DNA from: Escherichia coli
GTDB taxonomy: Bacteria > Pseudomonadota > Gammaproteobacteria > Enterobacterales > Enterobacteriaceae
Length of the DNA: 64,000 bases
Assembly (NCBI RefSeq): GCF_016026235.1
Contig: NZ_CP065613.1
Direction: 5' to 3' (one strand)
The notes beneath the pieces were generated by a model. It had not been told where the DNA came from. It ran no database searches and saw only the letters and a program-made list of their open reading frames with translations. Made by a program: the position numbers and the translations under genes. Of the stretch, positions 2,939 to 42,725 are shown piece after piece. The number at the start of each line of letters is the position of its first letter. The stretch's first letter is position 1.

Positions 2939-3012
2939 GCGGGCGTAGTTCAATGGTAGAACGAGAGCTTCCCAAGCTCTATACGAGGGTTCGATTCCCT
3001 TCGCCCGCTCCA
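2939..3012 (+). tRNA. glyU: tRNA-Gly (anticodon CCC)
   Basis: 74-nt sequence GCGGGCGTAGTTCAATGGTAGAACGAGAGCTTCCCAAGCTCTATACGAGGGTTCGATTCCCTTCGCCCGCTCCA; cloverleaf with anticodon loop CTTCCCAAG, T-loop GGTTCGATTCC, 3' CCA. Confidence 0.95.
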
Positions 3013-3245
3013 ATTTATCTTCACCTCATCAATCTGCCATTTTTGCTGTATCTGATTTTCTATATTATCTTAATTCAATCGCTTCAGACTTTTCGCAATC
3101 GCCGTAATATTTCCCCATTTTGTTGTAAATAAAAAGCGTTTACGCAATGCAATCCTTTTGTAACAACCCAGGTAAAACACCTTATTTTCAAGTTGTTAAA
3201 TAAGTGGTTATCTACGCTTTTAACAAACGATTGATGGAATATTTT

Positions 3246-3301
3246 ATGAAAGGGAAATCTGCATTAACTCTTCTGCTCGCTGGTATATTTTCGTGCGGCA
3301 C
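3246..3301 (+). pseudogene. 5' stub of a lipoprotein-like gene (MKGKSALTLLLAGIFSCGT) cut off by IS1
   Basis: ATG at 3246 followed by a signal-peptide/lipobox-like sequence; reading frame runs directly into the IS1 left inverted repeat at 3302. Confidence 0.35.
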
Positions 3302-3356
3302 GGTGATGCTGCCAACTTACTGATTTAGTGTATGATGGTGTTTTTGAGGTGCTCCA

Positions 3357-3632
3357 GTGGCTTCTGTTTCTATCAGCTGTCCCTCCTGTTCAGCTACTGA
3401 CGGGGTGGTGCGTAACGGCAAAAGCACCGCCGGACATCAGCGCTATCTCTGCTCTCACTGCCGTAAAACATGGCAACTGCAGTTCACTTACACCGCTTCT
3501 CAACCCGGTACGCACCAGAAAATCATTGATATGGCCATGAATGGCGTTGGATGCCGGGCAACTGCCCGCATTATGGGCGTTGGCCTCAACACGATTTTAC
3601 GTCACTTAAAAAACTCAGGCCGCAGTCGGTAA
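3357..3632 (+). CDS. insA: IS1 InsA (transposition repressor)
   Basis: 91-aa [40 protein letters not shown]... with zinc-finger-like CxxC...CxxC; standard IS1 organisation. Confidence 0.9.
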
Positions 3633-4054
3633 CCTCGCGCATACAGCCGGGCAGTGACGTCATCGTCTGCGCGGAAATGGACGAACAGTGGGGCTATGTC
3701 GGGGCTAAATCGCGCCAGCGCTGGCTGTTTTACGCGTATGACAGTCTCCGGAAGACGGTTGTTGCGCACGTATTCGGTGAACGCACTATGGCGACGCTGG
3801 GGCGTCTTATGAGCCTGCTGTCACCCTTTGACGTGGTGATATGGATGACGGATGGCTGGCCGCTGTATGAATCCCGCCTGAAGGGAAAGCTGCACGTAAT
3901 CAGCAAGCGATATACGCAGCGAATTGAGCGGCATAACCTGAATCTGAGGCAGCACCTGGCACGGCTGGGACGGAAGTCGCTGTCGTTCTCAAAATCGGTG
4001 GAGCTGCATGACAAAGTCATCGGGCATTATCTGAACATAAAACACTATCAATAA
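3551..4054 (+). CDS. insB: IS1 InsB (transposase made as InsAB' by -1 frameshift)
   Basis: 167-aa ORF overlapping the insA 3' end; slippery A-run TTAAAAAAC at about 3604-3612 inside the overlap. Confidence 0.9.
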
Positions 4055-4069
4055 GTTGGAGTCATTACC

Positions 4070-4249
4070 CGTCGGGTCAATGTCAATGGTGGCGCGATCG
4101 CACTCGGTCACCCGATAGGCGCTTCCGGTTGCCGAATCCTGGTTTCTCTGGTTCATGAAATGGTGAAACGTAATGCCCGCAAAGGGCTGGCAACGCTTTG
4201 TATCGGCGGGGGCCAGGGCGTGGCATTGACCATTGAACGTGACGAGTAG
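4070..4249 (+). pseudogene. yqeF: 3' remnant (59 codons) of acetyl-CoA acetyltransferase (thiolase) yqeF, truncated by IS1
   Basis: Frame starting immediately after the IS1 right end translates [59 protein letters not shown], a typical thiolase C-terminus; no start codon or N-terminal domain. Confidence 0.8.
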
Positions 4250-17161: not shown

Positions 17162-18587
17162 TAATGCCAGTCAGTTAAGCAACTGACTGGCTCTTTTTCG
17201 GGGCTGTGGGGTATTTCCAGGGCCTCTCCTTTACCACTCTCGGGAAGGCCCTTCCCCTTCTCGTCGGTAATTTCACAAGTTGTCCCATACTTGCAAGATC
17301 GCGCATCAGCTCCGGTATACGTCCCGGTGAAGCGCCCTGCAATGTCATCAGCATTCTCATCACCATTCCGCATGATTCTGAGAAACTCAGTTGATTCGGC
17401 CAGTAACCTTTCAGATGTTCCGCCATTTTAATCATCTGATATCTCACCAGATTATAAGCCAGTAAGACACCCCACAGCTCTTGCTCCACAAGCTCCGGCT
17501 TTTTACTTCTCAGCGTCAGCCTGCTCAGTTGCATCGTCTGTTTTATCTCCCTGTATCCCAGTTCGATTTCCCAGCGATGACTGTACAGATCCGCCATTTC
17601 TCCTCCGGGGAAGCGCATGGCGTCCGTCATCGACGTCAGCAGATGGCAGACTTTTCCTTTGCGCGTCACGGTCAGCAGGCGGGCTGTCACTTCATTTCCC
17701 AGTCCCGGCCACTTTTTTCGTGCCTGCGGGCTGGTTTTCAGCTTCACCAGATGATCGCCTTTACCCAGTTTTCTGAGCTCTTCATATTGCGCTCCCTTTC
17801 TGAGAGGTATCATCCAGTGGCGGTGTTCTCCCGCCAGGCTCCAGGCATTTAACAGTCCCAGTGAGTAATAACCTTTATCCATTAACGTCAGAGTGTTATC
17901 GCCGGTTTGTTCTATAAGTTGCTCAGCAAGCTCATTTTCGCTGTTCTTCATCGTGCCGAAGGCTGCAGCCGTCAGCAGATGGCTGGTCAGTTCCATCTGG
18001 CAGACCATTTTGACCTGCGGGTAGAGCGCCGGGTTCCCGGCATGTGTCTGGCGGGGGAAGGCTGCATCGTTCTCTGGTGTATCCGGTGTGCGCCAGAACA
18101 CACCATCGATGGCCAGCAGGGTCAGGCCGCACCAGTGCGGATGCGGCGTGGCGTTATGCCAGAGCTGCGCTGTTTTCGTGAACACGCGGCGGACAGCCTC
18201 ACTTCCCAGGCGCTGGCGGGCCTGAATAACGGCACTGGGGGCAACGAAGGGGCGATTGCCCGGCAGCATGATGTCCAGGCGATTCACAATCTGGTGAAGA
18301 GGTTCTTTACGCTCAAGCGCCATGCCAACAATACACCAGACCATCATTTCGAGGGGAAGACGGCGCTTGCGTAGCGTTACAGTACCTGATTCGGCAAGGC
18401 AACGAGAGATGAGTTCGGGGTCGAGGTAATCCCCCAGAGAAGTCAGTGGGTTACGCAGAGAATCGTAACGGGATACCAGATCAAGAGCCTGTCCAATGTG
18501 CATAAAAAAATCCGGAAACAAGTGAGCGTTTCCGGATTCTTACACAGCCACTGGATCGGTCAACTGATCCTTAACTGATCGGCATTA
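17162..18587 (-). mobile_element. IS4 insertion sequence (1426 bp)
   Basis: Terminal inverted repeats TAATGCCAGTCAGTTAAG... (17162-) and ...CTTAACTGATCGGCATTA (-18587); 1426-bp length; one long transposase ORF; flanked by a 13-bp direct repeat. Confidence 0.9.
17175..18503 (-). CDS. insG: IS4 transposase (DDE family)
   Basis: ORF 17175-18521; likely start [18 protein letters not shown]... at 18503 (442 aa). Confidence 0.9.
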
Positions 18588-42417: not shown

Positions 42418-42494
<77 letters not shown>

Positions 42495-42528
42495 TCACCG
42501 TACTGCTTTTACTTCATCAAATTTTGAT

Positions 42529-42605
<77 letters not shown>

Positions 42606-42648
42606 TCACCGTACTGCTTTACTTCATCAAATTTTAATTGGTTGCGGG

Positions 42649-42725
<77 letters not shown>

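Follow-up and report, generated by a model that had tools for sequence, protein, structure and literature searches.

An IS1-interrupted ygeQ/pkgA stub at the glyU-proximal edge of ETT2 in Escherichia coli

Locus organization

The locus studied here lies in the window, i.e., the whole 64-kb stretch of Escherichia coli DNA that was analysed, and comprises the 289 bases (3013-3301) located between the tRNA gene glyU and a complete copy of IS1. The gene actS/ygeR, which encodes a LysM plus M23-peptidase protein, precedes glyU, and to the right of IS1 a remnant of yqeF is followed by kduI, kduD and araE, in that order. The homologous position of glyU is annotated as tRNA-Gly in all the reference genomes compared. 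The features recognized at this locus are the following:

2939-3012, + strand: glyU, tRNA-Gly(CCC) (ARAGORN; Rfam RF00005, 71.6 bits)
3013-3154 (142 bp): core spacer 3' of glyU, 33.1% G+C, 94-95% identity to the ETT2-free strain MS7163
3155-3245 (91 bp), + strand: proximal ETT2 edge, region 5' of ygeQ/pkgA, 29.7% G+C, assigned by homology comparison
3246-3301 (56 nt, 18 codons plus 2 nt), + strand: 5' stub of ygeQ/pkgA, encoding the predicted signal peptide MKGKSALTLLLAGIFSCG
3246-3323, + strand: apparently accidental fusion ORF of 25 codons, made of the ygeQ stub plus 7 IS1 codons; translation MKGKSALTLLLAGIFSCGTVMLPTY, then a stop codon
3302-4069 (768 bp), + strand: complete IS1, delimited by its terminal repeats, which were read directly, and by Pfam
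3302-3324: IS1 left inverted repeat (IRL), GGTGATGCTGCCAACTTACTGAT
3357-3632, + strand: insA
3551-4054, + strand: insB' frame
3606-3614: A6C -1 frameshift motif TTAAAAAAC, in the insA/insB' overlap
4047-4069: IS1 right inverted repeat (IRR), reverse complement GGTAATGACTCCAACTTATTGAT
4070-4249, + strand: 3' remnant of yqeF (acetyl-CoA C-acetyltransferase), nt 1003-1182, last 59 codons plus stop (Pfam Thiolase_C)

The first-pass annotation had described 3013-3301 as AT-rich when compared with flanking DNA, and this was borne out by a G+C content of 34.3%, versus an average of 51.5% for the 64-kb window, 50.5% for actS and 53.3% for IS1; only 0.7% of the 289-bp windows within the 64 kb are equally low in G+C. 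Other spacers in the window are also low in G+C (yqeF-kduI, 36.4%; kduD-araE, 32.8%; xdhA-actS, 39.7%), and the value observed at 3013-3301 is not special for a spacer. Further, AT-richness is no mark of an island edge at this site, because 3013-3154 are equally AT-rich in ETT2-free strains, in which the spacer displays a G+C content of 32%. Low G+C beside a tRNA gene does not, on its own, indicate foreign DNA.

Conserved glyU spacer and boundary of the ETT2 island

ETT2 has been described as an island of low G+C that adjoins glyU (PMC3977695), and has been reviewed elsewhere (PMC3977695; PMC11068852). When the 3013-3301 segment was used as a megablast query, some part of it was matched in 5246 of the 5426 complete E. 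coli genomes, always beside glyU. The matches fall into two halves. Similarity to ETT2-free strains ends at 3154/3155, and persists beyond this point in the ETT2-bearing O55:H7, in strain 504239 and in K-12. The island-specific half (3155-3301; 147 bp, 35.4% G+C) was found in 4012 of the 5426 genomes, versus 5246 for the whole query, and about 1,200 genomes retain the core half without it. In O55:H7, 3155-3301 align to positions 339-485 of the reference locus (L005), inside a 98.1% identical block, and they are missing from MS7163.

Strain MS7163 carries no ETT2, and its yqeG begins 316 bp after glyU. Its counterpart of 3013-3154 runs straight on into the yqeG-proximal spacer; bases 1-142 of the MS7163 spacer correspond to L005 197-338, and bases 143-330 to L005 27855-28042. 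ETT2 of O55:H7 is the intervening block, L005 339-27854, of 27,516 bp and 35.8% G+C, located 142 bp downstream of glyU. By these alignments, 3013-3154 are to be read as ordinary conserved glyU-yqeG spacer and not as island DNA, and the true ETT2 boundary as lying at 3154/3155, 142 bp past glyU. The initial proposal that the 290 bp represent the proximal edge of a tRNA-associated island holds for 3155-3301, but not for 3013-3154, which are core spacer in ETT2-free strains.

Classical tRNA-integrated genomic islands are inserted at the 3' end of a tRNA gene, are flanked by att direct repeats and carry an integrase. At the ETT2 ends of O55:H7 we found neither flanking direct or att-like repeats, with no common repeat longer than 7 bp, nor a copy of the tRNA 3' end, and no integrase is annotated within the 27.5-kb island of this strain. 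Because of its distance of 142 bp from the tRNA gene and its lack of flanking direct repeats, ETT2 does not resemble a classical tRNA-integrated island, and its acquisition would not have followed the classical tRNA-att route. No ETT2 gene was mapped anywhere in the window, be it for the type III secretion apparatus or for a regulator.

Within 3013-3245, Rfam gave nothing beyond the tRNA, the predicted fold was not significant (z = -1.7), and no terminator-like site was found after glyU. K-12 MG1655 (L002) lacks 78 bp of the spacer (window 3021-3098), starting 8 nt past glyU, and these are kept in most other E. coli, ETT2-free strains included; their absence in K-12 suggests that this spacer segment is dispensable.

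The ygeQ/pkgA stub and its parent gene

The stub is no chance ORF: in thousands of E. coli genomes its ATG (3246) is where ygeQ, also recorded as 'glycoside hydrolase family 15 protein', is annotated to start, and the stub peptide is identical to residues 1-18 of the 536-aa protein of O55:H7. In strain O55:H7 USDA5905, ygeQ (L005 430-2040) starts at the same ATG and spans 1611 bp (536 aa); downstream of it lie a GhoT/OrtT-like toxin gene, an HTH regulator, sctC and the remaining ETT2 type III secretion genes. The first-pass annotation had seen at this place an ATG-initiated signal-peptide/lipobox stub interrupted by IS1, and the 5' end of a lost gene. Its description is accurate (ATG at 3246, IS1 after 56 nt), and the search that it proposed, with 3013-3301 as query, named the gene: ygeQ/pkgA, the GH15-annotated, glyU-proximal gene of ETT2. 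That annotation had also named an opposite outcome, an ordinary core match with no full-length gene anywhere; the core match was found for 3013-3154 only, and full-length homologues exist.

These homologues are found in Escherichia albertii (76% identity), Yersinia enterocolitica (58-60%), Commensalibacter and many uncultured bacteria. The full-length O55:H7 protein matches the GH15 profile PF00723 with 25 bits over residues 94-413 (cut-off, 22 bits), and is weakly similar to phosphorylase kinase regulatory subunits (E = 0.0016). Both similarities are consistent with the gene name pkgA, which derives from 'phosphorylase kinase and glucoamylase' and designates an ETT2 end gene (ECs3736-3737; PMC3977695). 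They likewise agree with a published account in which EC042_3075, located at an end of ETT2, is called glucoamylase-like (PMC2808357).

Across E. coli, including the copies known as ECs3736-3737 in O157:H7 Sakai and EC042_3075 in EAEC 042, the region upstream of ygeQ/pkgA and its first 56 nt are 97.6-100% identical, with the same start codon and the same place as first gene past glyU. Compared with the intact gene, the stub retains 18 of the 536 codons and nothing of the GH15-like domain (residues 94-413). The truncated ygeQ of K-12 (b2863) was broken later in the gene by IS2-associated decay, whereas the window copy was broken by IS1 at nt 56. We propose that 3246-3301 be annotated as a ygeQ/pkgA pseudogene fragment. 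The stub is a known gene fragment joined to a known element, at a well-documented decaying locus, and is in kind already known.

The stub peptide has a charged n-region (K2, K4) and the h-region ALTLLLAGIF, and a Sec-type signal peptide is well supported by these predicted features. The permissive PROSITE-type rule for a lipobox reads {DERK}(6)-[LIVMFWSTAG](2)-[LIVMFYSTAGCQ]-[AGS]-C. The stretch LTLLLAGIFSC, ending in IFSC, matches this rule but not the canonical [LVI][ASTVI][GAS]C. Cys17 is shared by the E. coli and E. albertii proteins. About half of the 23 more distant homologues read lack a cysteine close to the signal-peptide end, including the Yersinia proteins P0005-P0008 and P0004 (e.g., ...GLAQA/TPS); others have one, in some cases within a lipobox-like context of their own (Commensalibacter P0016 and P0019, LLAC; P0015, ITYC). 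To call the stub a lipoprotein start is to over-read the lipobox, and lipidation at the YgeQ signal peptide is plausible but unproven.

The GH15-like YgeQ family (homologues P0002-P0085) is widespread, with members in E. albertii, Yersinia, Commensalibacter, Elusimicrobiota, Bifidobacterium and others. A hydrophobic, signal-peptide-like start was seen in most of the 25 family sequences read, P0050 and P0085 being exceptions, and such starts fit awkwardly with the tentative idea in the literature of a type III effector.

The IS1 element and its junctions

Elements of the IS1 family measure about 768 bp, carry imperfect terminal inverted repeats of about 23 bp and generate a target duplication of 8-9 bp upon simple insertion. 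The window element is 768 bp long and yields the Pfam domains PF03811, PF12759 and PF03400 (Zn_ribbon_InsA, HTH_Tnp_IS1 and DDE_Tnp_IS1) with E-values of 1e-21 to 6e-78; it is 99.7% identical to an annotated IS1A-family copy in another E. coli genome (L007). No 9-bp target duplication is present around it, the flanks being GTGCGGCAC on one side and CGTCGGGTC on the other, which indicates that it is not a simple insertion. The missing duplication is no argument against the identity of the element, because such a loss is expected after a deletion. For comparison, a simple IS1 insertion in strain 203740 (L008), located 86 bp further into ygeQ, has the duplication AAAGTTATT on both sides. A promoter-like hybrid, TTGGCA-17-GAAAAT, extends across the left end of IS1 and the ygeQ stub (window 3287-3315, minus strand) and is directed toward glyU; this is no more than a consensus match.

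On the right side, the yqeF remnant covers positions 68-123 of the 123 positions of the Thiolase_C profile. The IS1 flank was placed at yqeF nt 1003 in a sister strain (L024), and is collinear with O55:H7 from L005 30515 on. Relative to O55:H7, 30,029 bp (L005 486-30514) are replaced by IS1, a comparison figure and not the size of an event; the replaced interval holds the rest of ygeQ, all other ETT2 genes, yqeG, and yqeF up to its nt 1002. In the nearest IS1-free relative, E. coli FDAARGOS_943, about 99.95% identical over 57 kb, the corresponding interval (L009 31901-38704) is already reduced to about 6.6 kb, and contains ygeQ' (535 bp), IS3, a 665-bp yqeH fragment, IS2, yqeG, and a yqeF with an internal stop. 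The actual deletion event may have been smaller than 30 kb. Further, the internal stop in FDAARGOS_943 suggests that yqeF was probably a pseudogene in this lineage already before the IS1 deletion.

The left junction is contiguous in none of the 5426 RefSeq E. coli genomes, and the right junction was likewise found in none of the 5426; furthermore, a 39-nt string across the left junction is absent from the GTDB species representatives and from the JGI metagenomes. Lineage mates were retrieved by means of the window's exact Aas protein, AraE being too widespread for this purpose; as a progenitor probe, the 304-aa truncated YqeF matched mostly contig-end truncations and was uninformative. Among the relatives, the contigs of three draft assemblies (L026-L028) start in the right end of IS1 and bear the exact right junction. 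An independent 3.45-Mb contig (L023) matches the window over 20.5 kb with a single mismatch. It shares the left junction exactly, and its 768-bp IS1 is identical to that of the window; its IRR flank, however, begins at window 4302, so that it lacks another 232 bp, made up of the yqeF remnant and 52 bp more. Both IS1 junctions are real, as they are seen in independent assemblies. The strain has completely lost ETT2, along with yqeG and yqeF.

Origin of the junction

With the integration of these comparisons, we consider it highly probable that 3013-3301 are a composite of the ancestral glyU spacer and of the last ETT2 DNA of this strain, cut off by IS1. In the course of events that we favour, IS1 would have inserted after nt 56 of ygeQ, and an IS1-mediated adjacent deletion, i.e., intramolecular transposition from the IRR end in one or more rounds, would then have removed all rightward DNA as far as yqeF nt 1002, including the rest of ygeQ, the remaining ETT2 of the ancestor, yqeG and most of yqeF, leaving a single IS1 without target duplication. 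We infer adjacent deletion as the specific mechanism, and favour it because the window and L023 share the IRL-ygeQ junction but differ in the IRR endpoint, by 232 bp; such endpoints, nested on a single fixed IS end, are the expected outcome of successive IS1 adjacent deletions. The order of events is likewise what we infer, since searches of the 5426 RefSeq E. coli genomes, the GTDB species representatives and the JGI metagenomes yielded no progenitor in which IS1 had simply inserted at ygeQ nt 56.

Adjacent deletion is a classical behaviour of IS1, and IS1-promoted deletions are known in gal and in plasmids. As in those cases, one intact IS1 is kept and no target duplication is present, with a fixed end on one side and, on the other, an endpoint that differs between closely related strains; the deletion proposed here differs from them in that the case for it comes from comparative genomics. 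The L023 comparison would provide a natural snapshot of ongoing IS1-driven reductive evolution, with 232 bp more lost from the same anchored junction. When set against ETT2 as generally described, the remnant is alike in its glyU-side location, in its low G+C (35.8% for the island, 35.4% for the remnant) and in its IS-associated deletional loss, as in many strains; it differs in that almost nothing of the island survives (147 bp), and in that the loss extends 2.66 kb into the core genes yqeG and yqeF.

A single IS1 lacking a target duplication is also just what would be expected from homologous recombination between two directly oriented IS1 copies, one at ygeQ nt 56 and the other at yqeF nt 1002/1003, with excision of the interval and retention of one hybrid IS1. 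The 5' region of ygeQ is indeed repeatedly struck by IS1 in E. coli, and one strain has two IS1 copies in the locus; however, IS1 at the yqeF position occurs in no genome searched, and the different IRR endpoint of L023 would require an extra IS1 insertion plus a second recombination, whereas repeated adjacent deletion from one end accounts for it more simply; we regard the recombination route as unlikely. A false join between ygeQ' and yqeF', created by the collapse of two IS1 copies during assembly, has to be weighed given that IS elements commonly break or misjoin assemblies and that the drafts of this lineage do break at the window IS1 and IS4, but the left junction recurs in L023 and the right one in three other assemblies, and no other part of the window contains the missing interval, which leaves such an artefact with hardly any probability. 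Virtually no credence is given either to the whole 289-bp segment being ordinary core DNA unrelated to any island: 3013-3154 do match island-free strains at 94-95%, and the core spacers in the window are equally AT-rich, but 3155-3301 have no counterpart in island-free strains, are missing from about 1,200 genomes in which the core half is present, and lead in O55:H7 into the gene for the 536-aa protein and then into type III secretion genes. An all-core origin is refuted for 3155-3301 and holds for 3013-3154 only.

We also considered whether the stub is kept because it is used, with the ygeQ upstream region driving either an exported, lipid-modified 25-codon product or transcription into IS1. 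The ATG, the upstream region and the signal peptide with its permissive lipobox are all intact, as this reading would have it; however, no sigma-70 promoter consensus was matched on the plus strand upstream of the ATG (3013-3245), no more than a weak GGA is seen 7 nt before the start codon, just 9 residues would remain after cleavage, and other lineages carry IS1 at many positions here, also upstream of the ATG. Since the IS1 positions vary among lineages, there is no sign of selection for the fusion seen in the window, and we hold a retained use to be very improbable. The narrower proposal that 3246-3323 constitute a new micro-lipoprotein gene, driven by the surviving ygeQ upstream region, whose product would be exported, lipidated at Cys17 and yield the 9-residue lipopeptide CGTVMLPTY, appears just as improbable; if true, the remnant would be a de novo micro-lipoprotein gene and not dead DNA. 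The 25-codon ORF is best taken as an accident of the junction, and a 39-aa GTG-started ORF across the same junction is not on record as a called gene. In our preferred reading, insertion of IS1 followed by adjacent deletion, 3013-3301 would be a composite, non-functional remnant of which no function is expected, and the finding matters little beyond correct annotation.

Recurrent IS1 insertions in ygeQ

In the RefSeq set, 25 genomes carry a same-orientation IS1 within about 600 bp of the position of the window junction, at about a dozen distinct offsets. IS1 has repeatedly struck the stretch that runs from the ygeQ upstream region to ygeQ nt ~640 (equivalent to window 3221-3940), and the insertions are accompanied by various adjacent ETT2 deletions. 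Three of these 25 genomes (L006, L007 and L008) were checked directly:

L006: IS1 at ygeQ +78, deletion reaching ygeH
L007: IS1 at ygeQ +108, whole island deleted, stopping just short of yqeG
L008: IS1 at ygeQ +142, simple insertion, plus a second IS1 further on

L006 and L007 belong to independent lineages and display the same IS1-plus-deletion pattern with different deletion extents, in support of the deletion mechanism. As these loci show, IS-driven erosion of ETT2 from its glyU end is common. ETT2 is said to have undergone 'widespread mutational attrition', a phrase that later papers attribute to Ren et al. in 2004, and the recurrent IS1 erosion agrees with it.

Other differences among the close relatives

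A 1426-bp IS4 with a 13-bp target duplication is located in the tas-ygdR spacer (window 17162-18587); it is present in L023 and absent from FDAARGOS_943, L024 and L025, and the lineage drafts break at this element. The relatives are rich in IS elements, for which reason a Shigella origin was considered; the window's exact RecC protein carries the label Escherichia coli in its sources. At window 42418-42715, three tandem tRNA-Met genes (metZWV-like) are found, versus only two in the 99.95%-identical FDAARGOS_943, a copy-number difference between the two strains.
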